The position numbers and the translations under genes are program-made. Under the pieces are notes generated by a model that did not search any database, was not told the DNA's origin, and saw only the letters and a program-made list of their open reading frames with translations. A stretch of DNA of 64,000 bases from Spirochaetia bacterium (GTDB lineage: Bacteria; Spirochaetota; Spirochaetia; SZUA-6; Fen-1364). Shown one piece after another: positions 16,380 through 52,926 of the stretch (position 1 is the stretch's first letter; each line of letters opens with the position of its first letter). Where the stretch lies: the NCBI GenBank assembly GCA_049519415.1, contig JBEKQU010000007.1, positions 24,061-88,060 on the forward strand, written 5' to 3'.

Positions 16380-16392
16380 GCGGCGCTCTCCG

Positions 16393-17559
16393 TTACTGCT
16401 TCTTCCCACGGACACCGAACCGCTTCTCCCATCCCTCCTTGTTTGCATCGAAATACGCATCGGGGTCGTAGGGATGCTCGCGCACGACTTCCAGGTTCAG
16501 GTCCAGTCCCAGGCCCGGCTTGTCCGGGAGCGACAGGTGCCCGTTTTGCGGATCGATGTCGGGATGCCAGGTGACCAGGTCCCGGGTCCAGGCCACATTG
16601 AACGGATCGAAGTGCTCCTGGATCAGAAAGTTGGGCACGCAGGCCGCAAGCTGCAGGCAGATCGCGGTGGCGACCGGACCTCCGCTCTGGTGCGGAGCGA
16701 TCCACGCGCCGCTGGCGCGGGCTATCTGTGCTACCGCAAGCGTGTTCATGATCCCGCCAAGGCACATGGGCTCCGGCTGGAATATACCGACATGTCCGCC
16801 CTTGGCGAGGGTCATGAACTTTCCCACACGTTCGAATTGCTCCCCTGTTGCCACGGGGATGGGACAGCGGGCGGCGATCTCGTTGGTAAGCTCCTCGCGT
16901 TCGGCCGTGGTCGGCTCCTCCCACCAGTACAGATCCAGCGGGAAAAGCCTGTGGGCGACTCGCAGCGCCTCGGGAGGCGTGAATCTGCAATGCACGTCGA
17001 TGAGGATCTTGAAGTCGCGGCCGAACCGGTCGCGAATGGCCTTCAGGATATCGTATGCCACCTGCAGGTTATTCTCATCGATGGTGCCCGACGCGGTGCC
17101 GAAGGGATCGATCTTCAGCGCACGGAAGCCTTTTCCCGCCGCCTTCACCGCCATGTCCAGGAAGGCTTCCGGTGTGCGTTCGGCGCGATACCATCCGTTG
17201 GCGTAGGCGAGGATGCTGTCCCTGAGCCGCCCGCCCAGCAGTTGATGGATCGGCACGCCGAGGGACTTGCCGAGAATGTCCCAACAGGCCACCTCGATGC
17301 CCGCTGCCGCAAGGCGATGGATGTGCCCGCCGTCCTGGATCGGCTCCAGAACTGCTCGCAGCACCGCGTTCACCTGCCGGGGGTCCCTGCCGATGGCAAA
17401 ATGAGCCAGCTCGTGGATGGCGGCTTCTGTGGTCTTGATGAAGCCGTTCATGGTCGCCTCGCCGATCCCGTAGAGGCCATCGTCCGTATGCACCTTCACG
17501 AACAGCCAGTTCTTCCATTCGGCGCTGACCGTGAAGGTCTCGATCCGTTCGATTTTCAT
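16393..17559 (-). CDS. Enolase-superfamily sugar-acid dehydratase (D-mannonate / D-galactonate dehydratase family, MR/MLE-type)
   Basis: MKIERIETFTV... N-terminal capping domain and KIDPFG...IDVHCRF...WWEEP barrel motifs typical of the ManD/GalD subgroup. Confidence 0.8.
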   Translation of the reverse strand: MKIERIETFTVSAEWKNWLFVKVHTDDGLYGIGEATMNGFIKTTEAAIHELAHFAIGRDPRQVNAVLRAVLEPIQDGGHIHRLAAAGIEVACWDILGKSLGVPIHQLLGGRLRDSILAYANGWYRAERTPEAFLDMAVKAAGKGFRALKIDPFGTASGTIDENNLQVAYDILKAIRDRFGRDFKILIDVHCRFTPPEALRVAHRLFPLDLYWWEEPTTAEREELTNEIAARCPIPVATGEQFERVGKFMTLAKGGHVGIFQPEPMCLGGIMNTLAVAQIARASGAWIAPHQSGGPVATAICLQLAACVPNFLIQEHFDPFNVAWTRDLVTWHPDIDPQNGHLSLPDKPGLGLDLNLEVVREHPYDPDAYFDANKEGWEKRFGVRGKKQ

Positions 17560-18224
17560 CCGTTTTCCCCCTGTTTCCCGAAGACCCCGTCCAGGTCCTC
17601 TTCCCGCATCAAGAGGACCCGCGACGGAGCCGCCTCCACTCCTTCGAGCTTGAGGGGAAGGGCGACCAGCAGGTAGTCTCCCGGCGCCACACTCGTGAGG
17701 TCCAGCATCTCTATGATGAGGCCGCCCGCGCCGCAGAAGGCGACGTGATTGGTGTCGCTCATCTCTCCATAGGGCCCGATGGAGAAACCGTCAATGCCGA
17801 GCACTTCGACGCCCGAATGAATGAGAACATCGATGGCCTCGTCGAGGAATGAGATATAGTCGGCCCCGAGCACGCCGGTGTGCAGTCGCGCGGAGTTCGC
17901 CGTCCTGAACAACGCCCTGCGGACAGGGGAAAAGCCCATCTCATCCAGCTCGGCCCGGCCGATATGGCCGGGGCCCCGGTGCTCGAAGACCCTGCAGGGT
18001 CCCATGAGCTTCCCGAGCTCGACCGCGTCAATGGTTTGCCCGTTCCTGCGGAAGTGCAGCGGCGCGTCGATATGAGTGCCCGAATGGGCGATCATATCGA
18101 GGCGGGTGGCGACGGTCTCATTCCCTCCGGGCAGGGGCTGATGCGTGACGGTGAACGCGGGCCGCTGTCCTCCCGGCCAGATCGGCGTGCGCGGCGAAAC
18201 GCCGATGCTTACATCGAAAATCAT
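17556..18224 (-). CDS. Cyclase-family metal-dependent hydrolase (kynurenine formamidase-like fold)
   Basis: HSGTHIDAPLHF motif. 222 aa. Confidence 0.7.
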   Translation of the reverse strand: MIFDVSIGVSPRTPIWPGGQRPAFTVTHQPLPGGNETVATRLDMIAHSGTHIDAPLHFRRNGQTIDAVELGKLMGPCRVFEHRGPGHIGRAELDEMGFSPVRRALFRTANSARLHTGVLGADYISFLDEAIDVLIHSGVEVLGIDGFSIGPYGEMSDTNHVAFCGAGGLIIEMLDLTSVAPGDYLLVALPLKLEGVEAAPSRVLLMREEDLDGVFGKQGENG

Positions 18225-18422: not shown

Positions 18423-18881
18423 ATGATCGTAGCGAAACTCGAACGCGCGGCGCAGCAGACGGCTCTCACCCCGAAATTCGAGAAGGCATATCGCTTCCTC
18501 CTGGATGCAAAGGGTCGCACCCTGGCTGAAGGGAAAATCGAGATTGATGGCGACAGGGTCTACGCCATGGTCCAATCCTACGAGACCCAGCCGGGCGGGG
18601 AGCCGAAGTTCGAAGCGCACCGGAGATACGCCGACATTCAGTACATTACCGGCGGGGAAGAGCTCATCGGCTGGGCCCCGCTGGAGAAGATGACCGTAAC
18701 GCAGGAATACGACCAGGCCAAGGATGTTGCCCTTGGAAAGGTTGCATCAGCGGATGTGACATCAGTGCGGCTTTTCGCGGGAGAGCTCGGGGTATTCTAC
18801 CCCAGCGATGCGCACGCTCCCAAGCAGGCAGTGGGGAAGCCGGGGAAGGTGCACAAGATCGTCGTCAAGGTGGCGATGTGA
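18423..18881 (+). CDS. YhcH/YjgK/YiaL family protein (DUF386, sugar anomerase-like)
   Basis: 152 aa. MIVAKLE...KFEKAYRFLLD...FEAHRRYADIQYI pattern typical of this family. GGGAGG RBS. Confidence 0.7.
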   Translation: MIVAKLERAAQQTALTPKFEKAYRFLLDAKGRTLAEGKIEIDGDRVYAMVQSYETQPGGEPKFEAHRRYADIQYITGGEELIGWAPLEKMTVTQEYDQAKDVALGKVASADVTSVRLFAGELGVFYPSDAHAPKQAVGKPGKVHKIVVKVAM

Positions 18882-19929
18882 CAGTTTCGTAAATAGCGCA
18901 CGCGTTTTCCATCGGGGTATCGATCTCGAAAAAGTGCGTGGGCGCGACCACGCAGCCGCTCCCTCCGGAAGCCCTGACGATCCGGGCGGTCTCCCTGCGC
19001 ACATCGTCGGGGTTTCCGTGGGCAAGAACGCTCTGGAGTCCGATCATCCCGTGGAAGGTTATATGCCTGCCGAAATCCCTGAACAAACCCTCGGCATCCA
19101 TTCCTTCGGCCTCCACCTGGACCGTTTGGTAAATATCGAGGCCCATGTCGATCCACAGCGGCATATGGCGGCGGTTGGAGCCGCAGGAATGCAGCATGAC
19201 TTTCGCGCCGTACCTATGCCCGAGCTCTATGAAGGCCTTGAGCTTCGGCGCAAAGACTGACTTCCAGGAGTCGAGGCTCATAAGGGGACCGGCTTGCGTC
19301 CCATAGTCGTCCCCTATCCAGAGAATGTCGATTTTTCCCTTTGCCGTCTTCAGGCCTCGTTCGGCGACCTCCAGGAGGATCTCCTGCCGCCGCTCCATGA
19401 GCGCCAGTCCCACTGGATCCTCTGTGGCGACATCCATAAGAACCTGCTCCATGCCCCTCGCGAAAGAGGTTCCATTGATGAGGTCCATCAAGCCAGGGTG
19501 CCCGAAGACAACCACGTACTCGTCGCGGACCTTGTCGCACTGACGCTCCAATTCGGAGAAATTGAATAGATCCGGCGAGGGCCAGGGATAGGAGCTCACC
19601 TCGTCCATCGTCTCGATGCGGGCGAAAGGCCTGTATTCGACTTCATCGTAGCTTCCGAATGAGTTGACGACGGGCCTGCGGCGCACGCCCCACATGTCGG
19701 TGAAGAACCCCTTTTCGTCCTTGGGATAGGGTTTTCTGAAATCAGCGTGCGAGAGGTGCCTGAAATCGATGTCGAGCTTTCTGAGGGCCTGCTCGTAGTC
19801 CGCAACGCCGAGATGGCTTGCTATGCGCTTGGGGACCTGCCCTTCCGCGATGAAATCCATGGGCAGCCTGTCGCAGGCCTCGTGCCTCAGCGCTGATTCA
19901 AACCGCGCGCGATGATTCATGGGGCTCAT
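18865..19929 (-). CDS. URO-D / MtaA-CmuA superfamily methyltransferase-like protein, paralog 3
   Basis: N-terminal MNHRARFESALRHEACDRLPMDF and IGDDYGTQAGPLMSL ... VMLHSCGSNRRHMPLWIDMGLDIYQTVQ (H-x-C-G motif). The ATG at 19927-19929 overlaps the upstream stop. The ORF track's 140-aa N-terminal extension is read-through. Confidence 0.75.
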   Translation of the reverse strand: MSPMNHRARFESALRHEACDRLPMDFIAEGQVPKRIASHLGVADYEQALRKLDIDFRHLSHADFRKPYPKDEKGFFTDMWGVRRRPVVNSFGSYDEVEYRPFARIETMDEVSSYPWPSPDLFNFSELERQCDKVRDEYVVVFGHPGLMDLINGTSFARGMEQVLMDVATEDPVGLALMERRQEILLEVAERGLKTAKGKIDILWIGDDYGTQAGPLMSLDSWKSVFAPKLKAFIELGHRYGAKVMLHSCGSNRRHMPLWIDMGLDIYQTVQVEAEGMDAEGLFRDFGRHITFHGMIGLQSVLAHGNPDDVRRETARIVRASGGSGCVVAPTHFFEIDTPMENACAIYETVTSPP

Positions 19930-20897
19930 GGGGAACGCGCAGCTCCGAACTCCGCGAACGCCTCGAGCATGCAGTCGATATTCTCCCTCTTGCCGCCCAG
20001 CCCGAGGATGTCGGTGGGAATGAGCCCGATCAGCCCGCCTCCCCTGTTTCCCAGGCACTCGACCAGTTCCTTCACTTCGCGGCGGATATCTTCCCTGGTG
20101 CCTGAAATGCCGGTGGTCTGATAGCTCACGGGACATGCGAAGCAAATCTTCCCCGAGAAGTCCTCTCCCAGCCGGCGGATCCCGTTGATATTCGGCTGGC
20201 CAAGATTGAGGATGTCGACCCCTATTTCGATGAAATCGGGGATGATGTCGTAGATGTAGCCGCAGCAGTGAAAATACAGGTCCAGTCCGAGGGAATGAGC
20301 CAGCTCCACCTGCTGCCGATAGCGCGGCTTGAAGATCTCCCGCCACAGGGCGGGGGAAATCAGGAGACTCTCCTGGGTCCCCCAGTCATCAGCCAGGTGC
20401 ACCGCGCTGAATCCCTGGGCCGCAATGAGGGTGAAGAGTTTTTCCTCGAAGCCGAAGACGACATCGGCCAAATTCTCGACCAGCTCGCGGTCCACGTAGA
20501 GATCCTCGATCAAAGCGGAGAAGCCGCGAAGGAAGGTCATGATCGTGAAGCCCGATAGGACGAGATTTGCCTTATAATACTTATCAGGGCCGTACTGGGC
20601 CCGGGCGGTCCTCAGGTCTTCGAATCGAGTCGGATCATTGGGGTCCGGGGCCTGGTAGCGCTTCAGATCCTCGCGGCAGGCGATGATCGGGAACTTGGGC
20701 TGCCCCATGGTGAGGTCGTTTTCGAGGTGAGTCCACTCGAAACCCCATTCGGAGTGCAGCCTGTCAGGGCCGGTGTAGTTTTTCACCACCTCGACGTTCA
20801 CGATGTCCGACGTGGCCAGGTCGTAGGGATTGGAGAGCGGGATGCGCTCGGGGTTCTCGAATCGAACCGCTTTCCTGACCAGGTCCTTGCCGCTCAT
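19926..20897 (-). CDS. URO-D / MtaA-CmuA superfamily methyltransferase-like protein, paralog 4
   Basis: ADDWGTQESLLISPALWR ... LYFHCCGYIYDIIPDFIEIGVDILNLGQP (H-C-C-G variant of the zinc motif). Confidence 0.8.
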   Translation of the reverse strand: MSGKDLVRKAVRFENPERIPLSNPYDLATSDIVNVEVVKNYTGPDRLHSEWGFEWTHLENDLTMGQPKFPIIACREDLKRYQAPDPNDPTRFEDLRTARAQYGPDKYYKANLVLSGFTIMTFLRGFSALIEDLYVDRELVENLADVVFGFEEKLFTLIAAQGFSAVHLADDWGTQESLLISPALWREIFKPRYRQQVELAHSLGLDLYFHCCGYIYDIIPDFIEIGVDILNLGQPNINGIRRLGEDFSGKICFACPVSYQTTGISGTREDIRREVKELVECLGNRGGGLIGLIPTDILGLGGKRENIDCMLEAFAEFGAARSP

Positions 20898-20900
20898 TTT

Positions 20901-22100
20901 TCACCGCCCCAAGAGCGCGGCGGTCTCCCTGGCCACCACTATTTCCTCATCAGTGGGCACGACCCAGACGGGGATCTTCGAATCCTTTGCGGAGATGGGA
21001 GCTTCCTTTTTTATGGTCCGCTTGTTGATCTCCTCATCCAGGATGATGCCGAACTCCTGGAGCCCTTCCAGCACGCGGCTTCGGATATAAGGGCTGGACT
21101 CCCCGGTCCCCGCGGCGAAGGTGATGACATCCACATGCCCGAGGATGAGCATCATGCTGCCCAGGTACTTGCGCACCTGGTATACGTACGTGTCGATGGC
21201 CAGGCGAGCCCGTTCGTGGCCCCGCTCCGCCGCTGTCTGGAGATCCCTCATGTCGAAGCCCATGCCGGAGATCGATGCGATTCCCGCCTGGCTCATCATC
21301 CTGTCCACGATCTCCTTTGGCGTCCCTTCGCCTTTGGACCAGAGGTAGGGAATGAGAAAACCGTCCATGTCCGAGCTTCTCACCGACATGGGAACGCCGG
21401 TATTCATTGTAAAGCCCGCTGTCCCGTCGATCGTTTTTCCTCCGCGGATGGCGACCACCGATGAGCTTCCCCCGAGGTGGAGCTGGACCGCATTGAACTC
21501 TCGGGCGTCCTTGCCGAGTATCTGCGCCATGCGGCCGTTCACGAAAAAATGGCTTGCCCCGTGTCCCATACTGCGCCGCACATCGTACTTCTGCGTCCAG
21601 TCCCAGGGGATCGGATAGATGCGCGCGTACTCGGGCCATCCCTGGAAAAAGAAGGTCTCGAAGAGGCCGATCAGCGGTTTGCCCGGCGCCGCCGTCCTGA
21701 AGGCCCGCACCGCGTCCACGACGAGCCGGTTGTGCATGGGGCAGATGTAGTCCGCGAACTCTTCCATGCCGGCGAGGACTTCGTCCGTCATTTCCCGGCA
21801 GCCCGTGATCCCCTTGGCGCAGACCGGCTTGAATCCCACCGCGTCCAGCGCGGCCAGGTCGCGGAGAGCTCCATCGGCTTTTTCCGTGAGCTTCCGCAGG
21901 GATACGTCAATGGCCTCCGAGGAGTTTCTCACGGGGAGGGTCTGTTCCTTTGATGCGCCGTCGCGGTTCGTCCAGGCCACGTGAGCGTCGGTTTCTCCGA
22001 CCCTCTCGACGAGGACCCTGGCAAGGGTGTTCTCCGAAGGCATCTCAATGAGCCTGCACTTCAGGGTGGAGCTTCCGACGTTGGCCACGAGTATCTTCAT
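20901..22100 (-). CDS. ackA: Acetate/propionate kinase family (acetate kinase)
   Basis: MKILVANVGSSTLKCRL N-terminus. AGGTGG RBS precedes the ATG at 22100. About 400 aa. Confidence 0.85.
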   Translation of the reverse strand: MKILVANVGSSTLKCRLIEMPSENTLARVLVERVGETDAHVAWTNRDGASKEQTLPVRNSSEAIDVSLRKLTEKADGALRDLAALDAVGFKPVCAKGITGCREMTDEVLAGMEEFADYICPMHNRLVVDAVRAFRTAAPGKPLIGLFETFFFQGWPEYARIYPIPWDWTQKYDVRRSMGHGASHFFVNGRMAQILGKDAREFNAVQLHLGGSSSVVAIRGGKTIDGTAGFTMNTGVPMSVRSSDMDGFLIPYLWSKGEGTPKEIVDRMMSQAGIASISGMGFDMRDLQTAAERGHERARLAIDTYVYQVRKYLGSMMLILGHVDVITFAAGTGESSPYIRSRVLEGLQEFGIILDEEINKRTIKKEAPISAKDSKIPVWVVPTDEEIVVARETAALLGR

Positions 22101-23113
22101 TTTTCCACCTGTGCGGCCGTGAAGGCGATGTTGATGAGGCACTCTTCCACCGTCGCGCCGCGGGAATGATCGGTAACAAGGCCCTGGATTCCCAGGAAGG
22201 TGGCGCCGGCAAGATGCCCGTTGCCCATGAGCATCATGCCCTTGCCCGCCATGTTGCCGCTCTGAAGGTCGGGCCAGATGAGGACATTCGCTTTTCCCGC
22301 CACTGCTGAGGGCCGTTTCACCTTTTTGGCCGCGACGTAGGGGGATATCGCGGCGTCGAGCTGGAACTCGCCGTCGATAAGGATGTCGGGTCTCCGCGTC
22401 CTGACCATGTCGAGGGCGCGCACCACCCGGTCGACTTCCTCATGCCGGGCCGAGCCAAGAGTGGAGAAGGAGAGCATTGCAACGCGCGGATTGTCGGGCA
22501 TGATGGTCTTCGCCTTGTCCGCCGCGAGAATCGCGATGTCGGCAAGCTCCTCCGAGCTGGGCCGGGGGAGAATCGTTCCGTCAGCGCAGGCGAAGACCAG
22601 ATTGTCCCCGAGCGGCGTTGAGGTGAAGAGGATGACGGCGAGGGCCGTCATCTTTGTGAACCCTTTCTTCATTCCCAAGATCCGGATGGCAGGCCGCGCG
22701 AGATCCGCCGTGGAATAGTGGACGCCCGAGCAGACCCCGTCGATCTCCCCCCGCTTATGGAGCATGCAGGAGAAGGCCGCTGGATCACGGACGATGCCTT
22801 CGATCTCCTTCCTGCTGAGCCCCTCCTTTGCGCGGAGCGCGGCGTACTCATCGACCATTGAATCCAATCCGCTGTATTTTTCAGGGTCGATGATCCTGAT
22901 TTCGCCCAACTCGCATCCCTCCCGGACCGCGATGGCGCGTATCGCGTCCCGGGAGCCGGTCAGGATGGGGTCCAGCCATCCCTGCCGGCGCACTTCAAGG
23001 GCCGCCGCGAGGTATCGCGCGTCGAACGGGGCGTCGGGTATGGCAATCTTCGCCTTGCTCGACGATGCCCGTTCGATGAGAAACCGGACGTAGGGATGCT
23101 CGAGGGCGCCCAT
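22097..23113 (-). CDS. pta: Phosphate acetyltransferase / phosphate butyryltransferase (short-form Pta)
   Basis: 338 aa, with the Pta/Ptb fold motifs (..MLSFST.GS...). Start overlaps the ackA-upstream arrangement (ATGA coupling). Confidence 0.8.
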   Translation of the reverse strand: MGALEHPYVRFLIERASSSKAKIAIPDAPFDARYLAAALEVRRQGWLDPILTGSRDAIRAIAVREGCELGEIRIIDPEKYSGLDSMVDEYAALRAKEGLSRKEIEGIVRDPAAFSCMLHKRGEIDGVCSGVHYSTADLARPAIRILGMKKGFTKMTALAVILFTSTPLGDNLVFACADGTILPRPSSEELADIAILAADKAKTIMPDNPRVAMLSFSTLGSARHEEVDRVVRALDMVRTRRPDILIDGEFQLDAAISPYVAAKKVKRPSAVAGKANVLIWPDLQSGNMAGKGMMLMGNGHLAGATFLGIQGLVTDHSRGATVEECLINIAFTAAQVEK

Positions 23114-23118
23114 CGCGC

Positions 23119-24354
23119 TTATGTGCCGGATACTGAGTCCACGAATCTCCTGAATTCGTCCACCGTGACGAGCCGCTTCTCCCGGATCGCCAGATCCTTG
23201 ACCATTTCGAGCACCTGTTCCTGCTTCTCCTTGTCCAGCGTGCGTCCGATCTCCCTGAGGAACCGCTCGATGCTGTAGGTGCCGCTCTTCTTGCCCAGCG
23301 CGAAGCGCCAGCCGGGCTGGCCGACGAGCTCGGGCTGAATGGAGGCGGCAATGAAGGGATCACCGGCTTTTGCCGCGTTCTCGAAGAACATGACCCCAAT
23401 GCCCGATTCCACTATGAAAACGTCGCGACCGACGATCGGCCGGTTGGGGGGAAGCGGATGGTCGTTGGTGAGCTTGCAGATGAATTTGCTCGTCTCCACG
23501 AATTTTTCCGTCTTGACGTGCGTTTCTACGCCATAGAGGCACTTGAGCGAGAGCACGACGTCCTCCAGCGGTGTGTTGCCCGCGCCCTCGCCGATGCCCG
23601 ATACCGCGACGTGCGCGACGTCGGCTCCCGCCGCGATGGCCGCGAGGGTGTTCGCCGCTCCAAGTCCGAAGTGCATGTGCATATGCGCCTCTATCGGGGT
23701 GGTCGGGAAGCGCTTCTTCACTTTCGTCACCATCTGGAAGACGGATTGCGGATGCACGCACCCGAAGGTGTCGGCCATGACAAAGGCGTCCATCTTGCCG
23801 CCCTGCCGAATTTCGTCAACGGTGTCCAGAAGGCTGTTGATCTCCGTGCGCGTGCCGTCAATGGTGAAGAAGGAGACGTACATGCCATACTCTTTCGCCG
23901 CTATGGTTGCCTCGATCGCCGCCTTCTTGACCCAATCCATGGTCTTGCCGTAGGCCCGTTCAACGAAGATCGGGTTGCAGGCTATCTCGAGCACGGCGCC
24001 TTTGCAGCCGGCCTTTTTCGCCATCTCGATGTCCGAGCGTATGCAGCGGCAGAAGGCGAAAATCTCCGGGCCGAGGTTGAGGTCGACGATCGCCTTCACG
24101 GCGTCGGCATCCCCCTGCGACACGGCCGGCATCCCCGCCTCGATCCTGTCCACCCCGAGCTCGGCCAGCTTCTTGGCGATCGCGACCTTGTCATCGCGGC
24201 TGAAGACGACGCCGGTCTGCTGCTCGCCCTCGCGGAGGGTGACGTCGTGTATCTTGACCTTGGGGTTGATCCTGAAGGGCTTCGTGACCTCCGGGTAGAA
24301 ATCCCACGGGCTCACGTACCACTGCTCTTTCCTGAACTTCGAATACTCGATCAT
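23119..24354 (-). CDS. DRE-TIM metallolyase (HMGL-like pyruvate carboxyltransferase domain; 4-hydroxy-2-oxoacid aldolase / homocitrate-synthase-like)
   Basis: IHDVTLREGEQ and H-x-H (AHMHMHFGLG) metal-binding motifs of the HMGL-like family. 411 aa. Confidence 0.7.
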   Translation of the reverse strand: MIEYSKFRKEQWYVSPWDFYPEVTKPFRINPKVKIHDVTLREGEQQTGVVFSRDDKVAIAKKLAELGVDRIEAGMPAVSQGDADAVKAIVDLNLGPEIFAFCRCIRSDIEMAKKAGCKGAVLEIACNPIFVERAYGKTMDWVKKAAIEATIAAKEYGMYVSFFTIDGTRTEINSLLDTVDEIRQGGKMDAFVMADTFGCVHPQSVFQMVTKVKKRFPTTPIEAHMHMHFGLGAANTLAAIAAGADVAHVAVSGIGEGAGNTPLEDVVLSLKCLYGVETHVKTEKFVETSKFICKLTNDHPLPPNRPIVGRDVFIVESGIGVMFFENAAKAGDPFIAASIQPELVGQPGWRFALGKKSGTYSIERFLREIGRTLDKEKQEQVLEMVKDLAIREKRLVTVDEFRRFVDSVSGT

Positions 24355-24457
24355 CTCCTCCTCCTTGCTTCGGTCCGGGAGCTCCGGCCGCGTTTTTTTC
24401 GCGTTCGGTATATCATCCGATCATGCCGATCCGCAACGCCAGGACTTCAAAACTCTT

Positions 24458-25948
24458 TTATTTTGTCACTCGTGGTGATGAAGCGCGGCGCGCCTGCCCG
24501 CCGCTCATGTAGACCGCTTTTCGATTGACAAAAAACTCCAGCCCTGAGACGTCATTCTCGGGAAGCCCGAAGCCGGATTCCTTCCAGCCGCCGAAGGGAA
24601 GGGACGGGTCCTTGATGCCGGTATTGATGTTCACGTGCGCCAGCCCTGCCTCGATGCCGTCGACGTAGGCGAGGGCCGCGGTGAGATCTCGGGTGAAAAT
24701 CGCGGAGGAAAGTCCGTACGATGAATCATTGGCAAGGCGCAGCGCATCCTCGAGGCTGGAGAAGGGAGTCACGGCCAGGACGGGGCCAAATACCTCCTCG
24801 CGGAAAAGTGACATCGCGGGGGTCACGTCAGCGAACAGGGTCGGGCGGATGAAGTAGCCGTCGGGCAGGTCCGCGGAGCCGCCGCCCGCTGCCTTCACGG
24901 TAAGGCGCCGTGCACCCTGGCTTTCCGCAAGAGCGATCGCCTCCATGATCCTTCCGTATTGGGCCGGCCCCGCAACGGGCCCCATGTCGGTTGATTCGTT
25001 CAGCGGGTCGCCCACCTTCATGGCATCGCAGCGAGCGCGGAGCGAATCGAGGAAACGATCGTAGACGGCGGCGTGCACGAGGATGCGGCTCGTCGATGTG
25101 CACCACTGGCCCGAGCAGGCAAAGCCCGCCACCATGGCCGCGGCGCCCGCCGCCTCCAGATCCGCGTCATCCATCACGATGAGCGCGTTCTTTCCGCCCA
25201 GCTCAAGCTGCGTGCGAACGAGGCGGGCGCCGGCTTTGCGCTGAATCGACCTGCCGACCTCCGTGGACCCCGTGAAGGTGATGGCCTTTACCCGTGGGTC
25301 CTCCACCAGAGCGTCTCCCAATGCCGCGCCCGACCCCGTCACGGAGTTGAAAACGCCGGGCGGGAACCCCGCCTGGAGGAAAAGCTCAGCCAGAAAGATG
25401 CCCGACCACGGGGTGAAGCTTGCAGGCTTGAAGACCACGGTATTGCCGGTAAGGAGGGCGGGGAGCGCCTTGCGGCAAACTACGTTCACGGGAAAATTCC
25501 AGGGGCATATCACTGCCGCGACGCCGAGCGCATGGTACTGAACCCAACCTGTCATGCCCCGGGTTCCCGTGGGCAGCGTATGGCCGAAAAAGCGCGAGAC
25601 CTGCTGCTGGTGATACGTACCCTCGGCCAGGGCGGAGCTCACCTCGGTGCTCGCTTCACGAAATGTCTTTCCGTTCTCCAGCGCAACAATCCGCGCGAGC
25701 TCCTCGCCGCGTATTGCCAGCAGCGCCAGAAACCGTCCCACCGCGTCTTGCCGGTCGCGCACCGGTGTTTCGCGCCATGCCGGGAAGGCGGCCTGCGCGG
25801 CGTCGACCGCAAAGGCAATGTCAGACGGATCGGATGCCTGAAACAGTCCGAGCACGGAGCCTTTGAGGGAAGGATTCTCGTCCTCGAACGTCCTCCCCGT
25901 CCGGCTCGCCGCCCAATTCCCTCCAATGAGGTTGCGATGAGTTTCCAC
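24458..25948 (-). CDS. NAD(P)-dependent aldehyde dehydrogenase
   Basis: NLIGGNW N-terminus, catalytic Cys region (GFACSGQWCTSTSR) and GGWKESGFG motif. 496 aa. Confidence 0.85.
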   Translation of the reverse strand: METHRNLIGGNWAASRTGRTFEDENPSLKGSVLGLFQASDPSDIAFAVDAAQAAFPAWRETPVRDRQDAVGRFLALLAIRGEELARIVALENGKTFREASTEVSSALAEGTYHQQQVSRFFGHTLPTGTRGMTGWVQYHALGVAAVICPWNFPVNVVCRKALPALLTGNTVVFKPASFTPWSGIFLAELFLQAGFPPGVFNSVTGSGAALGDALVEDPRVKAITFTGSTEVGRSIQRKAGARLVRTQLELGGKNALIVMDDADLEAAGAAAMVAGFACSGQWCTSTSRILVHAAVYDRFLDSLRARCDAMKVGDPLNESTDMGPVAGPAQYGRIMEAIALAESQGARRLTVKAAGGGSADLPDGYFIRPTLFADVTPAMSLFREEVFGPVLAVTPFSSLEDALRLANDSSYGLSSAIFTRDLTAALAYVDGIEAGLAHVNINTGIKDPSLPFGGWKESGFGLPENDVSGLEFFVNRKAVYMSGGQARRASSPRVTK

Positions 25949-25972
25949 TGTGCCGCCCTTCCTGATGACGCC

Positions 25973-26746
25973 TCACGAACTGTGGAGAAAGCACCCGCCC
26001 TGGGTCATCAGGACCACGCGGGTTGCGGGGGATACGCGTGCGCACTCGGCTACGAATGCCGCGGGATCTCCGCCATGCTGTATGAATGTCCAGAAGTGGC
26101 ACGGGATGACCACGGCAGCTCCCACGTCGCGCGTGAGGGCCGCCGCATCCCCGGCTCCCATGTTTCCGTAAGCGCCGTTGATGGCAGGGATGATCACCTG
26201 GGGTTTCAGCGACGCCACCTCAGCCATCCTGGCGGGACGGTACGCGGTATCTCCGGTGAAATAAACCCGTAGAAAGCCGAAGTCCAGAACAAATCCGACC
26301 GCGTCGGGGGCCAGATCCCCATGGTCGGCGTACACGGCGCGCACCGTGACAAACCCCAGCTCCGCCTCGCGCCCCTCCCGCACCTCGGTGATGCGTCCCT
26401 TGTTGATCCCCAGGCCAAGAAGCCTCCTGACGGTCTCCGCGGGCGCAACGAAATGCGCCCTGGTTTTCTTCGCGATAACGGGAATGGCGTCGATGTCAAG
26501 GTGATCCTCATGGTGATGGGTGAGGAGCACCGCATCGGCGCGAACCTCGGCGGGCGAGACGACTCCCGCCATGATGCGCTTGAAACCCGCGAGCCGCTCC
26601 ACGCTGTCCGTGAGGTAGGGGTCCACGTATGCGATTTTCCCGTCAGGGGTCTTGAAAACGAAACCCGCCTGACCCAGCCAGAAGATGCCGACGCTCCGCG
26701 CCGGCACCGAGAGGCGCTGAATGGATTTCGCGACGTCGGTGGTCAA
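25973..26746 (-). CDS. MBL-fold metallo-hydrolase (UlaG-like lactonase/hydrolase)
   Basis: HHHEDHLD (H-x-H-x-D-H) motif. 257 aa. Confidence 0.7.
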   Translation of the reverse strand: MTTDVAKSIQRLSVPARSVGIFWLGQAGFVFKTPDGKIAYVDPYLTDSVERLAGFKRIMAGVVSPAEVRADAVLLTHHHEDHLDIDAIPVIAKKTRAHFVAPAETVRRLLGLGINKGRITEVREGREAELGFVTVRAVYADHGDLAPDAVGFVLDFGFLRVYFTGDTAYRPARMAEVASLKPQVIIPAINGAYGNMGAGDAAALTRDVGAAVVIPCHFWTFIQHGGDPAAFVAECARVSPATRVVLMTQGGCFLHSS

Positions 26747-27417
26747 GAAACTTCTATCTCCTTCGGGTGGGTTTCCTGGTAGGTCTCAATAAGGTGGGCG
26801 TACGCGGTGTCCAAATGCTCCTGGAGGATGCTCGTGCATCTCTCGGCGTCTCGCCTGTGAAGTGCGTCCAGAAACTCCTTGTGCGTGGCATTGGCTACCC
26901 GAAAGTTTTCTATGGCAAACGCATTTCTCGAATAGATGAGAAACCAGATCTGCGTCTTGATGCTCTGCCACAGGGAAAGGAGACGGTTATGCCCGGAGAT
27001 TTTCACAAACTCCTCATGAAACCGCAGATCGAGATCCACCGCCTCGTGCAGCGAGAACTCGTGATTCATGCATTCATCAAGCGCTTCGATCCCCTCCTGG
27101 AGCCGCGCAAAATCGATGACCCGCGCTCTCTCCATGACATAGCGCAGGGCCAGCAGTTCGAGGGCCAGACGGAGGCTATGGACTTCCTCCACATCGTTCA
27201 CCGTCATGCTGACGACGGTGGCGCTGCGGTTGGGCTCCCGGACGATGAGCCCCTCGTGCTCAAGCTGGTTGAGCGCGTCGCGCACCGGACCGCGGCTGGT
27301 TTTCATCATGGCCGAGATCGCTTGTTCGAGTATCCTTTCCCCTGGCTTGATGTTGCCGGTGAGGATTTCCAGACGGAGTTTTCTCACGACCTCGTCGGCC
27401 AGAGAGCTCCTTTCCAC
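26743..27417 (-). CDS. GntR-family transcriptional regulator, FadR/FCD subfamily
   Basis: N-terminal wHTH (ERILEQAISAMMKTSRGPVRDALNQLEHEGLI) plus a C-terminal all-helical FCD domain. 224 aa. Translationally coupled within the long minus-strand operon. Confidence 0.8.
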   Translation of the reverse strand: MERSSLADEVVRKLRLEILTGNIKPGERILEQAISAMMKTSRGPVRDALNQLEHEGLIVREPNRSATVVSMTVNDVEEVHSLRLALELLALRYVMERARVIDFARLQEGIEALDECMNHEFSLHEAVDLDLRFHEEFVKISGHNRLLSLWQSIKTQIWFLIYSRNAFAIENFRVANATHKEFLDALHRRDAERCTSILQEHLDTAYAHLIETYQETHPKEIEVS

Positions 27418-27479
27418 TGGTGTGAGCAGGGACGGTTTTGCGCGGACTCTTATGGAGCTATTGATAATGCCCCCCTCTC

Positions 27480-28577
27480 TCAGCGTGCGGTTCCGCTTCG
27501 CTTTACGTCATCGCCCATAAAAAGCCCCTCGATGTCAAGCGAATAATCCTCCGCGAGGCCCCGCAGGCTGGTGAGCACGTCGGGAGGCAGGGACACGCCC
27601 TCTTTCAGCGCCCTTTCCCTGTTCTCCCACTCCCTCTCTCCCGGCAGATAGATGCGATCCGCGCCCCGCGCTTTCGGCGCGCCCCGTATTTCCAGGATCA
27701 ACTGGTCCATCCGGTTCCCGAACTCCTCCGCGGAAAGGAAGATGCCGACGTCGATTGCGATGAATGAGAGGGATTGGTTTACGGGCTCCCCCCCCATGAC
27801 CCAGCTCACCAAGCCCTTTCCGAAGGCGCCTCCTGCTAGAATACCGGTGAGGATCTCGATCATCAGGGCAATGCCGTATCCTTTGTGTCCCGCCATGGGC
27901 AGGAGGGCCCCGACCCGCGGATAGCCGCTGGGGTCCGTTGTGGGAAGACCCTCCTCGTCGATGAGCCAGCCCTCCGGAATTTTCTTGCCTGCGGCCTGCG
28001 CGGCATAGACCTTGCCGGCCGCGACGACGCTGGTGGCGATATCGAGAAAAACGGTTTTTTCATTTCGGGCCGGAGCCGCGTACGCTATCGGGTTGGTCCC
28101 CAGGACCGGGACCTTCGAGCCGGGCACGGCAACGCCCGCGTCCACGTTGCACATGCTGATGCCGAACATTTTCTCCCGCGCCGCCATATTCGCGTAATAA
28201 CCCGCGGCGCCGTAATGACCGCTATTCCTCACCGCGACGTATGCGATCCCGGTGCTCCGCGCCTTTTCAATGGCCTTGCGCATGGCAATGGCGGCGCTTA
28301 CCATGGGCATGGATCTGTGGCCGTCGAAGATCGCCCACGAAGGGCCTTCGGAGAGAAGCTCCGACGACGCGTGGAGGTCCATCTTTCCGTCGCGGAAGTT
28401 CTTCATGAGCGGCCGCAGCTGCTTGGTTCCATGGGTGTGAACGCCCCAGGTATCCGTTGTCACAAGGACATCGGCGGCAATCCTGGCGTCCCCCTCCGAC
28501 ATGCCGGCCTTTCTCATGGCCTGCACGCAGAATCCTTCAAGAGCGCTCACGCGCACTTTTGCATGGACATCTGCCAT
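27480..28577 (-). CDS. Ldh_2-family (malate/L-lactate dehydrogenase 2, YiaK / ureidoglycolate-dehydrogenase-like) NAD(P)H-dependent 2-keto-acid reductase
   Basis: 365 aa with family-typical GHKG and H-x-G motifs (GHKGYGIALMIEIL). Confidence 0.75.
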   Translation of the reverse strand: MADVHAKVRVSALEGFCVQAMRKAGMSEGDARIAADVLVTTDTWGVHTHGTKQLRPLMKNFRDGKMDLHASSELLSEGPSWAIFDGHRSMPMVSAAIAMRKAIEKARSTGIAYVAVRNSGHYGAAGYYANMAAREKMFGISMCNVDAGVAVPGSKVPVLGTNPIAYAAPARNEKTVFLDIATSVVAAGKVYAAQAAGKKIPEGWLIDEEGLPTTDPSGYPRVGALLPMAGHKGYGIALMIEILTGILAGGAFGKGLVSWVMGGEPVNQSLSFIAIDVGIFLSAEEFGNRMDQLILEIRGAPKARGADRIYLPGEREWENRERALKEGVSLPPDVLTSLRGLAEDYSLDIEGLFMGDDVKRSGTAR

Positions 28578-28800: not shown

Positions 28801-29619
28801 ATGGCTCGCACGATTCTGGACATGTTCGATTTACACGGCCGTGTGGCGCTGGTGTCCGGCGGTGCGCAGGGAATGGGGCGCGCAATGGCCCTTGCCTTCG
28901 CCGAGGCAGGAGCGGACCTGGTGCTGCCTAGCCATTCCAATGTAGCAGGGGTTGAGGATACGGCTGAGCAGGCGCGAAAGCTCGGGAGGCGAGCGGTCGT
29001 CGTGCCGGGAGATATGACGGACGTGGGTCAGATCCGCTCCGTATTCAAGGCGCTGGACAGGGAGTTCGGCAGGATCGACATTCTCGGCGCTGTAGCGGGC
29101 CCCGGGTTCCGCGCCTCCGCGGAGGACATCGAGCTTGACAAGTTTCAGCAGGTCATATACGGGCTGACGACCGCCCGGTTCTGCTGCTGCCAGGAGGCGG
29201 GACGCCGAATGCTGAAGCAGGGCCGTGGAAGCATCATCAACATCGGGTCGCTGGCATCCGTCACGGCGCTGGGGCGCGGAAACTTCGCCTACAGCGTGGG
29301 CATGGGCGCCGTGGCGATGCTGACGCGAGAGCTGAGCACCGAATGGTGCAGCCGCGGGGTCCGGGTCAACGCCATCCTGCCGGGGCAGGTCACCAATCCC
29401 GGCCTCCAGGCATATTGGGCGGCCGACCCGGCGGTCAAGGAGACAATGCTGCGCGGTATTCCCATGGGAAGATTCGGCGCCCCCGACGACATCAAGGGAG
29501 TGGCGCTCCTTCTTGCCTCCGATGCCTCGGCCTGGATGACGGGAGCACTGATCCCCTTCGATGGGGGAAACCTCGCAATGAACGCCGGCGGTTCGGCCGG
29601 TCCGTACAAGGCGCCGTAG
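28801..29619 (+). CDS. SDR-family oxidoreductase (gluconate-5-dehydrogenase / KduD-like)
   Basis: GGAQGMG Rossmann motif and a Y-x-x-x-K catalytic region. 272 aa. AAGGAGAAG RBS. Confidence 0.8.
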   Translation: MARTILDMFDLHGRVALVSGGAQGMGRAMALAFAEAGADLVLPSHSNVAGVEDTAEQARKLGRRAVVVPGDMTDVGQIRSVFKALDREFGRIDILGAVAGPGFRASAEDIELDKFQQVIYGLTTARFCCCQEAGRRMLKQGRGSIINIGSLASVTALGRGNFAYSVGMGAVAMLTRELSTEWCSRGVRVNAILPGQVTNPGLQAYWAADPAVKETMLRGIPMGRFGAPDDIKGVALLLASDASAWMTGALIPFDGGNLAMNAGGSAGPYKAP

Positions 29620-29652
29620 TCCGCGCCGCGGCAGGGGAGGGAGGGTTTTTCG

Positions 29653-30657
29653 ATGACGGTGAAAAAGAGCGCGGCAATCGGCAAAGATCAGATGCTCGCG
29701 CTATATCGCACCATGCTCTTGATTCGCCGCACTGAAGAGCAACTGGTGAAGCTGTACGCGGCAGGGAAGATCTACGGCGGCGTGCACACGTACATTGGGG
29801 AAGAAGCCGTCGCTGCGGGGGTGTGCGCTCATCTCGGCAACAACGATGCCGTGTTCAGCACGCACCGCGGCCATGGCCACGCGCTTGCCAAAGGCATGGC
29901 CCCCCGAGAGCTGATAGCGGAGCTGCTGGGCCGCGCGACGGGCTGCTCCGGCGGTCGCGGGGGTAGCATGCACCTGTTCAAACCGGAGATAGGGTTCATG
30001 GGATCGAGCGGGATCGTCGGACCCTGCATCACGCTGGCAGCCGGAAGCGCGTATGCGGCAAAACTGCTTAAGGCTGACCGGGTCAGCGTGGCTTTCTTTG
30101 GCGATGGCGCGACCAACAATGGCGCATTCCACGAGGGGATCAACATGGCGGCTGCCTGGGGACTGCCGGTCCTTTTCGTGTGCGAGAACAACCTGTACGC
30201 TACCGAGGTCCCTTATGCGGCGGTCACGAAAAATCCCAACCCGGCGACACGCGCGGCGGCGTATGGCCTGCCGGGCCTCGCCGTTGACGGCAATGACGTG
30301 ATGGCCGTCTATCAGGCCGCTGGAGAAGCCGTGCGCAGGGCCAGATCCGGGGAAGGGCCGACCCTCCTGGAGTGCAAGACCTATCGAACGCGCGCCCACT
30401 CAGAAGGAATGCGTGACGCGGGCTACAGGACCCAGGAGGAGATCGCGGAATGGAAGGCTCGTGACCCGATCAAGGCATGGGGGGGAAAGCTTCTTGCGGG
30501 CGGGATTGCGGCCCAAGCGGAGCTGGATTCTATTGACGCGGAGCTGAAAGCGCTTGCGGAGGAAGCGGCGAGCTTTGCCCTGGCAAGCCCGATGCCCGAT
30601 CCCGCCACGGTCACCCAACACGTGTATGCGACAGAGCAGGCAGGCCAGAATGCGTGA
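29653..30657 (+). CDS. Thiamine-diphosphate-dependent 2-oxoacid dehydrogenase E1 alpha subunit (PDH / acetoin / BCKDH-type)
   Basis: TPP-binding region GDGATNNGAFHEGINMAAAWGLPVLFVCENN. 334 aa. Confidence 0.85.
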   Translation: MTVKKSAAIGKDQMLALYRTMLLIRRTEEQLVKLYAAGKIYGGVHTYIGEEAVAAGVCAHLGNNDAVFSTHRGHGHALAKGMAPRELIAELLGRATGCSGGRGGSMHLFKPEIGFMGSSGIVGPCITLAAGSAYAAKLLKADRVSVAFFGDGATNNGAFHEGINMAAAWGLPVLFVCENNLYATEVPYAAVTKNPNPATRAAAYGLPGLAVDGNDVMAVYQAAGEAVRRARSGEGPTLLECKTYRTRAHSEGMRDAGYRTQEEIAEWKARDPIKAWGGKLLAGGIAAQAELDSIDAELKALAEEAASFALASPMPDPATVTQHVYATEQAGQNA

Positions 30658-31627
30658 AATGACATTTATGGACGCCGCCCGCGAAGGGCTGGCGGAGGAG
30701 ATGGCGCGCGACCCGGCCATTTTCGTGGTCGGCGAAGGGATCGGCGTCCGCGGCGGCAATTTCAACACGACTGTCGGTCTGTACGACCTCTACGGTCCGG
30801 AGCGGCTGCGCGACACGCCGATCAGCGAGCGCGGATTCACGGGAATCTGCATAGGCGCCGCGGCGTCGGGAGCCCGCCCGGTGGTGGATTTCATGTTCAT
30901 TGATTTCCTCACCGATGCATTCGGGGACATGTTCAACCAGATGGCCAAGCTCCAGTGGATGAGCGGCGGCCGGCTGAAGATGCCCATCGTGGTGCGCGGT
31001 TGCGTTGGCGCTGCGCCTTCGAACGCGGCTCACCACTCGGGAAACTATTACCCGTTCTTCATGCATGTCCCCGGTTTCCGGGTTGTCATGCCCGCCACGC
31101 CGGCCGACGCAAAAGGACTGCTCAAGACCGCCATCCGCAGCGACGACCCCGTGCTCTTCCTGGAGCACAAGAACCTGCTTTCCCTCAAGGGCCCGGTGCC
31201 CGACGGCGAGCACCTGGTCCCCTTCGGGAAGGCATCCGTTTCCCGGGAAGGGAAGGACCTCACGGTAGTGGGTGTCGCGTTCATGGTGAAAAAGGCGTTG
31301 GAAGCGGCGGAGCTCCTGGCAAAGGAGGGGATCTCAGTGGAGGTGATCGACCCTCGCACCCTGGCTCCCCTGGACATCGACACCGTTCTGTCATCGGTGC
31401 GCAAGACCGGACGCCTCCTGGTGGTCGACGAGGACTTCGCGCCATGCGGCGTGGCTTCAGAGATCGCCATGCAGGTGATGGAGAAGGGGTTCGACGATCT
31501 GGACGCTCCCGTAAAACGGCTCAATGGGCTCTTCTGTCCCGCGCCCTACAGCCCGGCCCTGATGACCAACCTCATCCCCACAACCAGCGCCATCGTCCAG
31601 GCGCTGCGCGACCTTCTGGCCGAATGA
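30650..31627 (+). CDS. 2-oxoacid dehydrogenase E1 beta subunit (transketolase-like)
   Basis: MREMTFMDAAREGLAEEMARDPAIFVVGEGIG... Start overlaps the alpha-subunit stop by 8 nt. Confidence 0.85.
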   Translation: MREMTFMDAAREGLAEEMARDPAIFVVGEGIGVRGGNFNTTVGLYDLYGPERLRDTPISERGFTGICIGAAASGARPVVDFMFIDFLTDAFGDMFNQMAKLQWMSGGRLKMPIVVRGCVGAAPSNAAHHSGNYYPFFMHVPGFRVVMPATPADAKGLLKTAIRSDDPVLFLEHKNLLSLKGPVPDGEHLVPFGKASVSREGKDLTVVGVAFMVKKALEAAELLAKEGISVEVIDPRTLAPLDIDTVLSSVRKTGRLLVVDEDFAPCGVASEIAMQVMEKGFDDLDAPVKRLNGLFCPAPYSPALMTNLIPTTSAIVQALRDLLAE

Positions 31628-31641
31628 ATCGGGGGTAATCA

Positions 31642-51199: not shown

Positions 51200-52926
<1,727 letters not shown>

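Follow-up and report, generated by a model that had tools for sequence, protein, structure and literature searches.

A LeuA-like gene coupled to phosphotransacylase and acetate-kinase-family genes in a sugar-acid catabolic island of a Spirochaetia bacterium

Introduction

In the pathway known as Route III a 2-keto-3-deoxy acid is oxidised to the corresponding 2,4-diketo acid, which is then hydrolysed to pyruvate and either lactate or glycolate; its key enzymes are an L-2-keto-3-deoxyrhamnonate (L-KDR) or L-2-keto-3-deoxyfuconate (L-KDF) 4-dehydrogenase and a 2,4-diketo-3-deoxy-acid hydrolase of the FAH family (PMC6336799). In the microcompartment pathway by which Planctomycetota and Verrucomicrobiota degrade fucose and rhamnose, lactaldehyde is converted to the coenzyme A (CoA) thioester lactyl-CoA, then to lactyl-phosphate and finally to lactate (PMC8857213). 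These are among the described systems closest to the locus analysed here, which lies in a stretch of 64,000 nucleotides (the window) from a Spirochaetia bacterium (contig JBEKQU010000007.1, positions 24,061 to 88,060 of the forward strand). A minus-strand operon of this window contains three consecutive genes, for a LeuA-like protein of the DRE-TIM fold, a phosphotransacylase (PTA) and an AckA-like kinase of the acetate-kinase family, which are referred to below as the trio. The operon in its entirety is a familiar type of island for sugar-acid catabolism. Its core trio is a module that occurs widely, is mis-annotated and can be told by clear signatures in its sequences. No paper on this module turned up in the literature, whether the search was for the trio itself, for DRE-TIM combined with phosphotransacetylase, or for rhamnose with FAH and acetate kinase.

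Results

An earlier note on this DNA had read the first gene of the trio as a DRE-TIM aldolase of the 4-hydroxy-2-oxoacid type. The fold was recognised correctly, but the word aldolase is imprecise for a protein of the LeuA/homocitrate-synthase type: the models of isopropylmalate, citramalate and homocitrate synthase give about 305 bits against 77 bits for 4-hydroxy-2-oxovalerate aldolase (DmpG), and the aldolase models reach 70-77 bits where their cut-offs lie at 229-286. The protein also stays under every curated NCBIfam cut-off on the synthase side (305.8 versus 517 and 305.3 versus 484.75 bits; NifV, 277.8 versus 462.9), and HCS_D2 matches with 23.6 bits, under its cut-off of 27. There is no DmpG_comm domain (no match to PF07836), the motif REGEQ has Gln45 where DmpG has its catalytic His after RDG, and the nearest solved relatives are a homocitrate synthase (HCS; 6ktq), an isopropylmalate synthase (IPMS; 3rmj) and a methylthioalkylmalate synthase (MAMS; 6e1j); the enzyme is not of the DmpG type. 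No DmpF gene is present among the scanned open reading frames (ORFs) of the window. An AlphaFold model of the protein (pLDDT 91.8) has 6ktq and 6e1j as its top Foldseek matches, and the alignments with these two structures span 386-408 columns, the C-terminal subdomains included.

When the active site is compared with that of MAMS, one part is retained and another is lost. R89, D90, Q93, T257, H288 and H290 of MAMS correspond to R41, E42, Q45, T196, H224 and H226 of the window protein; R41, E42, T196, H224 and H226 make up the metal and 2-oxoacid site and vary little or not at all among 82 sequences, and Q45, which aligns with the MAMS Gln next to the CoA thiol, is invariant in the family. In the other part, E227 is replaced by I165, H388 by G320, H383 by V315 and Y399 by F334. 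The Glu-Tyr-His triad is missing from all 82 relatives, where its positions have become Ile, a variable residue and Gly, Val or Ile, respectively, and the whole signature of retained and lost residues is found in 81-82 of the 82 family members, from many phyla. Two residues without counterpart in the synthases, E123 and C104, are near-invariant (81 of 82 sequences), and Glu123 lines the pocket, which is polar (E123, S/N127, T/V192). It has previously been shown that the MAMS mutants H388A, H388D, H388E, H388Q, E227A, E227D and Y399S are inactive (PMC11532901), and Glu227 and His388 are candidates for activating the hydrolytic water (PMC8468904). Judged by these residues, the LeuA-like family is a distinct, conserved subfamily, and with the triad needed in MAMS lost family-wide, the canonical Claisen condensation of acetyl-CoA is almost certainly not its reaction. 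The window protein is predicted to be a metalloenzyme of the LeuA/HCS fold in which binding of a 2-oxoacid, and probably of CoA, is preserved, while the machinery enolising acetyl-CoA is gone.

The PTA encoded by the second gene scores 250.6 with NF007233, below the cut-off of 310, and keeps the catalytic Ser309 and Arg310 as well as the CoA-binding Arg87 and Arg133, with Asp316 changed to Glu. Across the related loci the PTA slot holds two non-orthologous types, both with the Ser-Arg catalytic pair: a Pta-like protein of about 338 amino acids in loci of Armatimonadota and of the Planctomycetota-Verrucomicrobiota-Chlamydiota (PVC) group, and a Ptb-like protein of about 305 amino acids in Acidobacteriota loci. 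That two non-orthologous types fill one slot suggests that the phosphotransacylase activity itself is under selection.

The third gene had been labelled ackA, but its product departs from a canonical acetate kinase in active-site residues and lies below the TIGR00016 cut-off (282.4 versus 293.4). In the numbering of M. thermophila AckA, F90, K91, E148 and G211 replace the H, R, D and N of the M. thermophila and T. maritima enzymes; Arg91, Asp148 and Asn211 we take to be essential in the M. thermophila kinase. All 31 module-linked kinases carry F90, K91, E148 and G211. Among the 108 closest full-length homologues drawn from a collection of 5.8 billion proteins, 107 have F90, K91 and G211 with either Glu (102) or Asp (5) at position 148, and the signature holds down to 39% identity. 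N7, H180, R241 and E384 are kept, and the acyl pocket is small and hydrophobic in most members (V93, A/V122, F179, P/A232). The AckA-like kinase is, on its sequence, a deep and separate clade of the acetate-kinase family, altered where the phosphoryl/carboxylate site is lined.

Homologues of the LeuA-like protein with 45-92% identity occur in metagenomes and in metagenome-assembled genomes (MAGs) labelled as Acidobacteriota, Armatimonadota, Abditibacteriota, Verrucomicrobiota, Planctomycetota, Acidimicrobiia, Chloroflexota and Thermoanaerobacterales; of the named relatives of the window genes, those closest to them are MAGs of Planctomycetota and Verrucomicrobiota. The gene order of the related loci was established by a same-strand downstream walk combined with phmmer searches, which replaced a greedy longest-ORF calling that was confounded by antisense ORFs in high-GC DNA. 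The PTA_PTB gene is the next gene after the LeuA-like gene in 52 of the 74 loci with enough downstream sequence, and the AckA-like gene is at position +2 in 30 of 73 (Acidobacteriota, Armatimonadota, Verrucomicrobiota and Acidimicrobiia). The same arrangement is recovered when the search starts from the kinase. Complete genomes with the trio include OZ253547.1, OX638355.1 and OZ244973.1. The coupling of a DRE-TIM-fold gene to pta-ack that the earlier note had pointed out is therefore borne out, both by an adjacency conserved across phyla and by the duplication of the trio as a block on one metagenome contig (L090, 718-9457). The genes there run in the order cyclase, two tandem copies of the trio, a third kinase, FAH, DmpF, DmpG and LutB, and the two copies are 65.6% (LeuA-like), 64.5% (PTA) and 62.4% (kinase) identical, the pattern expected of three genes duplicating and diverging as a block. 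The second and third kinases of L090 have a short deletion around the acyl-pocket positions 232-234.

FAH genes are the next commonest neighbours of the trio (20 of 83 loci, in the fetched flanks) and often stand directly after the kinase. Genes for the oxidation of 2-hydroxyacids also recur: the window and the Armatimonadota locus L005 have Ldh_2, at least nine loci have D-2-hydroxyacid dehydrogenases, L090 and L092 have LutB, and L088 and L089 have GlcD/GlcF-like genes. A cyclase gene is located directly upstream of the LeuA-like gene in L008, L010, L012, L090 and L092, the trio of L005, L011 and L090 has DmpFG next to it, and no single type of regulator is conserved with the trio. Locus L005 has ten gene families in common with the window. 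The identities are 59%, 58% and 52% for the trio, 55% for an SDR (short-chain dehydrogenase/reductase), 36% for 2-Hacid_dh, 55% for Ldh_2, 49% for FAH, 41% for the metallo-beta-lactamase-fold hydrolase (MBL), and 47% and 54% for the E1 beta and E1 alpha subunits; RhaT and DmpFG are present in addition.

Several further arrangements were observed around the LeuA-like gene. About ten Acidobacteriota loci without PTA (L047, L050, L065, L069, L072, L077, L079, L083, L086 and L087) have the LeuA-like gene adjoining that of a molybdenum hydroxylase/aldehyde oxidase of about 930 amino acids with a fused 2Fe-2S domain. Two Chloroflexi MAGs (L088, 11309-13964, and L089) have Fer4/CCG (GlcF-like) and FAD-oxidase (GlcD-like) genes in place of the PTA gene, neighbours that tie the LeuA-like family to glycolate or D-lactate oxidation. 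A single gene call of 581 amino acids in L092 (1056-2801) joins an HMGL-like and a PTA_PTB domain; it is probably a frameshift artefact on a contig with many fragmented genes, and if real the fusion would be further evidence that the LeuA-like protein and PTA work together. In L005 (16225-18525) all that comes after E1 beta and E1 alpha is a lipoyl-domain protein of 94 amino acids, with no E2 catalytic domain.

Within the window the trio belongs to a series of nine minus-strand ORFs, identified from the ORF list and Pfam between 28577 and 18865 (Table 1). Their order, strand and gaps, including those of 103 and 62 nt, reproduce the first reading, except that it spoke of a ten-gene operon where nine genes were listed and nine are present. 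With start codons picked by ribosome-binding-site context, the intergenic distances in operon order are 62, -4, 24, 103, 5, -4, 3 and -4 nt. Three of the junctions are ATGA-type overlaps of 4 nt each (GntR/FCD-MBL, pta-kinase, and between the two URO-D genes), and paralogue b accordingly begins at ATG 19929, overlapping the stop of the preceding URO-D gene. The same nine-gene map is given by independent gene calls on four metagenome contigs (L001-L004) with an identical LeuA-like protein; these calls also show the convergent DUF386 gene, which overlaps the 3' end of the last URO-D gene and bounds the nine-gene unit at 18865.

Table 1. Coordinates of the nine-gene operon and of the neighbouring genes in the window
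Feature	Position	Strand	Remarks
Ldh_2-family 2-hydroxyacid/2-oxoacid oxidoreductase	27480..28577	-	first operon gene; PF02615 383 bits
GntR/FCD transcription regulator	26743..27417	-	PF00392 + PF07729
Metallo-beta-lactamase-fold hydrolase (MBL), candidate lactonase	25973..26746	-	Lactamase_B_2, Lactamase_B_3; UlaG-like, PRK00685-like
Classical non-acylating NAD(P)+ aldehyde dehydrogenase (ALDH)	24458..25948	-	PF00171 515 bits; ELGGK, GQWC
LeuA/homocitrate-synthase-like DRE-TIM protein, 411 aa	23119..24354	-	trio gene 1; PF00682 225.8 bits
Phosphotransacylase (PTA_PTB), Pta type, 338 aa	22097..23113	-	PF01515 255 bits
Acetate-kinase-family kinase, distinct clade, 399 aa	20901..22100	-	PF00871 287 bits
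URO-D/MtaA-superfamily protein, paralogue a	19926..20897	-	weak PF01208, 38.9 bits
URO-D/MtaA-superfamily protein, paralogue b, last operon gene	18865..19929	-	weak PF01208, 37.2 bits
Convergent DUF386 (YhcH/YjgK/YiaL) gene	18423..18881	+	PF04074 134.6 bits; operon boundary
Divergent operon: SDR, E1 alpha, E1 beta, E2, FAH-family hydrolase, second D-2-hydroxyacid dehydrogenase	28801..34741	+	
Cyclase-family hydrolase, galactonate-dehydratase-like enolase-superfamily dehydratase, D-2-hydroxyacid dehydrogenase (glyoxylate-reductase-like), ABC solute-binding protein	13700..18224	-	

A consensus scan of 17500-29500 found 2 promoter-like sites against 2.5 expected and 10 terminator-like sites against 8.5, which is no enrichment, and no minus-strand terminator-like site lies within any intergenic gap. 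The promoter consensus is that of sigma-70, which may not suit this lineage, so that the scan is weak evidence either way. The single transcript assumed earlier is supported in that the genes behave as one tightly packed unit, and co-transcription of the nine genes is likely. The Rfam scan of 17000-30000 gave no matches, and a search of the gaps and the divergent promoter region for inverted repeats that could serve as a GntR operator yielded only an unconvincing, imperfect palindrome of 11 nt at 28623-28638.

In the ALDH of the operon the ELGGK motif still has the hydrolytic general-base Glu, and the GQWC motif the catalytic Cys. Its top matches in the Protein Data Bank (PDB) and NCBIfam are alpha-ketoglutaric semialdehyde dehydrogenase, betaine aldehyde dehydrogenase (BADH), succinate-semialdehyde dehydrogenase (SSADH) and AldA (lactaldehyde), its nearest relatives are non-acylating, and the model of the acylating methylmalonate-semialdehyde dehydrogenase (MMSDH) comes only 22nd (295 bits against a cut-off of 448.5). 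Motifs and relatives thus identify an ordinary non-acylating enzyme and not the CoA-acylating one that had been considered, and it therefore cannot feed Pta. The route to Pta by way of an aldolase and an acylating ALDH is not supported; the earlier reading was wrong about the type of the first enzyme and about the role of the second. The ALDH gene adjoins the trio in only 2 of 83 related loci.

The best NCBIfam matches of the Ldh_2 protein are sulfolactate dehydrogenase and ureidoglycolate dehydrogenase, both below cut-off. The sulfolactate match, together with the logic of an Xsc-Pta pathway, prompted the idea of sulfoquinovose/sulfolactate degradation, which was rejected because there is no Xsc or sulfo-lyase and because Ldh_2, with a score of 257, comes nowhere near the cut-off of 500.

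Sequence searches found no PDB relative for either of the URO-D proteins a and b. The pair is absent after ackA in the related loci, where FAH or ALDH holds that slot, and the two genes are lineage-specific passengers; the relevance given to them in the earlier note is not supported. A methyltransferase role for them within the pathway is unsupported, as no corrinoid protein was found among the scanned ORFs and the pair is not conserved with the trio. The window contains six URO-D/MtaA paralogues in all (9479-10687, plus strand; 18865-19929, 19926-20897, 41701-42846, 42877-43992 and 44002-45165, minus strand), mutually 24-53% identical, with a DDWGTQ motif in most and an H-(S/C)-(C/D)-G motif in all of them. 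They are dispersed among sugar-utilisation clusters with ABC transporters, PfkB kinases, a dihydrodipicolinate-synthase (DHDPS)-type aldolase and SDRs.

The surroundings of the operon consist of superfamilies of non-phosphorylative sugar-acid pathways, in keeping with the sugar-acid catabolic setting proposed earlier. The SDR of the divergent operon is KduD/gluconate-5-dehydrogenase-like; all SDRs next to the module were typed by NCBIfam as generic gluconate-5-dehydrogenase/KduD-like, which does not identify a substrate. E1 alpha, E1 beta and E2 score as components of pyruvate dehydrogenase (PDH), and E1 beta passes its cut-off (355 versus 321 bits). A role of E1/E2 as acetoin dehydrogenase was rejected, with 282 bits for the PDH models against 79 for the acetoin E2 model. 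The FAH of the window has 2,4-didehydro-3-deoxy-L-rhamnonate hydrolase as its best model and an intact H-x-x-E dyad, which was checked in the window copy only. Further ABC transporter genes are located downstream on the minus strand. All five enzyme superfamilies of Route III, those of the sugar 1-dehydrogenase, the lactonase, the acid-sugar dehydratase, the KD-acid 4-dehydrogenase and the FAH-type diketo-acid hydrolase, are represented in the window, every one with a match below the equivalog cut-off (for example, LRA6 183 versus 500 and galactonate dehydratase 254 versus 311).

Elsewhere in the window, the divergent region that separates the cyclase gene from DUF386 has an inverted repeat at 18274-18337, with 27-nt arms that are 81% complementary and a spacer of 10 nt, which may be an operator or a structured leader. 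A histidine-utilisation-like block (51200-55135; urocanase, glutamate formiminotransferase and an amidohydrolase) falls where the GC content of the window is highest (0.665-0.68 at 52-60 kb, compared with about 0.62 in the remainder). Two segments may be acquired DNA: 38371-39618, encoding a protein with transposase-like HTH_32 and HTH_28 domains at a local GC dip of 0.58, and 10000-14000, where GC is lower (0.51-0.56) over a GDSL-lipase-like gene and ABC permeases.

Discussion

What does the trio do? It probably acts as one acyl-CoA/acyl-phosphate unit, in which the LeuA-like enzyme makes or uses a thioester and the PTA and the kinase interconvert this thioester with a free acid and ATP. As to the direction, the chances of an ATP-yielding one are about even. 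It is favoured by the catabolic nature of the rest of the window and of L005 and L090, by the co-location of DmpFG, which produces acyl-CoA, by the poor fit of a diverged kinase and a duplicated trio with a mere supply of acetyl-CoA, and by the precedent in the PVC group, where lactyl-CoA is turned into lactyl-phosphate and lactate (PMC8857213). Our best overall explanation, offered tentatively, makes the nine genes a single catabolic transcription unit and part of a larger island in which a sugar or sugar acid is broken down by an oxidative, non-phosphorylative route, with the trio leading from thioester to ATP. Any specific thiolytic reaction and acyl group must be considered doubtful. The most explicit proposal, and a rather unlikely one as a whole, is that the trio is a new route of substrate-level phosphorylation, present in at least four phyla, in which an enzyme of the LeuA fold thiolyses 2,4-diketo-3-deoxy sugar acids or other acylpyruvates; the trio would then be an energy-conserving version of the hydrolytic Route III.

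According to this proposal, the dehydrogenase, lactonase and enolase-type dehydratase of the island would convert a sugar to the 2-keto-3-deoxy acid, and the SDR would oxidise the latter to the 2,4-diketo-3-deoxy acid. The LeuA-like enzyme would cleave the diketo acid with CoA as the nucleophile, alongside simple hydrolysis by FAH, giving a metal-bound pyruvate enolate and a 2-hydroxyacyl-CoA such as lactyl-, glycolyl- or glyceryl-CoA. The PTA would turn this thioester into the acyl phosphate, from which the AckA-like kinase would form ATP and the hydroxy acid. Ldh_2 or the 2-hydroxyacid dehydrogenases could oxidise the released hydroxy acid, and pyruvate could be converted to acetyl-CoA by the divergently encoded PDH-type E1/E2. 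Thiolysis fits the retained 2-oxoacid/metal site, which could stabilise the pyruvate enolate as leaving group. It also fits the loss of the triad that deprotonates a carbon acid, together with the kept CoA-side Gln, the apparently kept C-terminal subdomains and the polar pocket, and it fits the recurrence of FAH-type acylpyruvate enzymes and of genes for hydroxy-acid oxidation nearby.

Several observations weigh against this interpretation. A real objection is that the window FAH with its intact dyad could cleave the same diketo acid, which would make the proposed thiolysis redundant. Binding of CoA by the LeuA-like protein is deduced only from the retained subdomains and Gln45, and Glu123 could replace the lost base, so that a Claisen condensation would be kept. 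In 22 of the 74 loci there is no PTA within 10 kb of the LeuA-like gene, and some of these loci set it beside genes for a molybdenum (Mo) hydroxylase or a glycolate oxidase, contexts that would suit a glyoxylate-condensing or an aldolase role equally well. In most Acidobacteriota the trio, with or without FAH, is surrounded by housekeeping genes, with no sugar-acid genes near.

Three other explanations have been considered. The trio could be assimilatory, the kinase and PTA activating acetate or another short acid to its CoA ester and the LeuA-like enzyme condensing this ester with a 2-oxoacid such as glyoxylate or pyruvate, where Glu123 would stand in for the missing base; the enzyme would thereby be the counterpart of a malate or citramalate synthase, and the 2-oxoacid would be supplied by 2-hydroxyacid dehydrogenases, Ldh_2 or glycolate oxidase. 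The fold and the 2-oxoacid site are indeed those of the Claisen synthases, Gln45, which in MAMS stands beside the CoA thiol, is invariant, and the pocket has gained the invariant Glu123. Genomic context points the same way, as glyoxylate-reductase-like 2-Hacid_dh genes recur and GlcF-like and GlcD genes follow the LeuA-like gene in the Chloroflexi loci L088 and L089, the position that malate synthase holds in glc operons. However, all three triad residues that mutagenesis has shown to be needed are missing family-wide, acetyl-CoA as a central metabolite should need no dedicated clade of diverged kinases, its supply gives no reason for tandem duplication of the whole trio, and the remaining genes of the window, L005 and L090 are all catabolic, including the acyl-CoA-producing DmpFG; an assimilatory role is therefore judged improbable. 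More conventionally, Pta and the AckA-like kinase might turn acetyl-CoA from the PDH-type E1/E2 into acetate and ATP, while the LeuA-like protein would be a metal-dependent 2-keto-3-deoxy sugar-acid aldolase whose aldehyde product is oxidised by the non-acylating ALDH; the Pta-kinase part would then be similar to ptb-buk-bkd of Enterococcus faecalis. The PDH-like scores of E1 alpha, E1 beta and E2, of which E1 beta is above cut-off, and the presence of E1ab beside the trio in L005 too are consistent with this, loss of the acetyl-CoA-enolising triad would suit an aldolase, and enzymes that oxidise aldehydes occur near the LeuA-like gene (ALDH in the window, L010 and L073; DmpF in L005, L011 and L090; Mo-hydroxylase in about 10 loci). 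Yet the PTA gene directly follows the LeuA-like gene in those 52 loci mostly without E1/E2 or an aldehyde dehydrogenase near, the LeuA-type C-terminal subdomains, which hold the CoA site in MAMS, appear to be kept and conserved, the kinase is non-canonical, and the block duplication takes in all three genes. This division of the trio into two ordinary functions seems unlikely to us.

The same fold allows a further explanation, since DRE-TIM citramalyl-CoA and HMG-CoA lyases exist and HMG-CoA lyase is among the fold matches of the LeuA-like model. The kinase and PTA would here use ATP to make the CoA ester of a hydroxy-dicarboxylate such as malate or citramalate, and the LeuA-like enzyme would cleave it reversibly to acetyl-CoA and a 2-oxoacid without hydrolysis of the thioester, in analogy to malyl- or citramalyl-CoA lyase. 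If ATP and CoA were all that the trio required, its stand-alone operons among housekeeping genes would be accounted for, and the loss of Glu227 and His388, the candidates for activating hydrolytic water, would preserve the thioester (PMC8468904). On the other hand, the acyl pocket of the kinase is small and hydrophobic in most members and has no basic residue for a second carboxylate, a retro-Claisen cleavage also needs acid/base groups equivalent to those of the lost triad, and nothing connects such a reaction with the sugar-acid genes of the window, L005 and L090, which makes this explanation very improbable.

If the proposed thiolytic route were true, one ATP would be won for each sugar in oxidative sugar-acid pathways, in which the energy of the C-C hydrolysis is supposed to be lost, and this would be relevant to energy-limited bacteria of soil, sediment and peat (Acidobacteriota, Armatimonadota and the PVC group). 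It would also represent a new type of reaction for the DRE-TIM metallolyase superfamily and a new class of substrates for the acetate-kinase family, and it would put right the routine annotation of hundreds of genes as 'isopropylmalate/homocitrate/citramalate synthase' and 'acetate kinase'. Natural enzymes producing or consuming glycolyl- or lactyl-CoA and the matching acyl phosphates are wanted for synthetic carbon fixation and for the assimilation of formate and glycolate. Should another reaction prove to be the right one, enzymology would still have a clean target in the trio, given its conservation, its duplication and its residue signatures.

Comparison with known systems

The resemblance to Route III lies in the SDRs, the lactonase candidate, the enolase-type dehydratase, the FAH with its H-x-x-E dyad, the ABC transporter and the regulator of the window; in Route III, however, there is no LeuA-like enzyme, PTA or kinase, and the diketo acid is hydrolysed without energy conservation. 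The microcompartment pathway of Planctomycetota and Verrucomicrobiota shares with the proposed route the sequence from acyl-CoA to acyl-phosphate to acid and ATP on a hydroxyacyl group derived from a sugar, and it is found in the same broad lineage. Its thioester, though, is made by an acylating ALDH within a shell, whereas the conserved partner in the window is the LeuA-like enzyme, and none of the 49 scanned window ORFs matches the shell families PF00936 or PF03319.

Parts of the proposed logic are familiar from other systems. In Enterococcus faecalis the ptb-buk-bkd operon gains ATP through the joint action of a 2-oxoacid dehydrogenase complex, a phosphotransacylase and a kinase, and in the Tdh/Kbl system (threonine dehydrogenase and 2-amino-3-ketobutyrate CoA ligase) oxidation to a beta-keto compound is followed by CoA cleavage to an acyl-CoA. 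Both differ from the trio in using other protein families for C-C cleavage, with no LeuA-like enzyme. DmpG/DmpF offers the likeness of a DRE-TIM enzyme that releases pyruvate while the other fragment is passed on as acyl-CoA, but the LeuA-like protein is only about 25% similar in sequence and the window has no partner dehydrogenase. With LeuA, HCS, citramalate synthase (CMS) and MAMS the protein shares the full-length fold, the Arg-Asp/Glu and His-x-His site and the CoA-side Gln. It is set apart from these synthases by the loss of the triad, by the new Glu123 and Cys104, by scores below the curated cut-offs and by its partners, which are a PTA and a kinase rather than genes of leucine or lysine biosynthesis.

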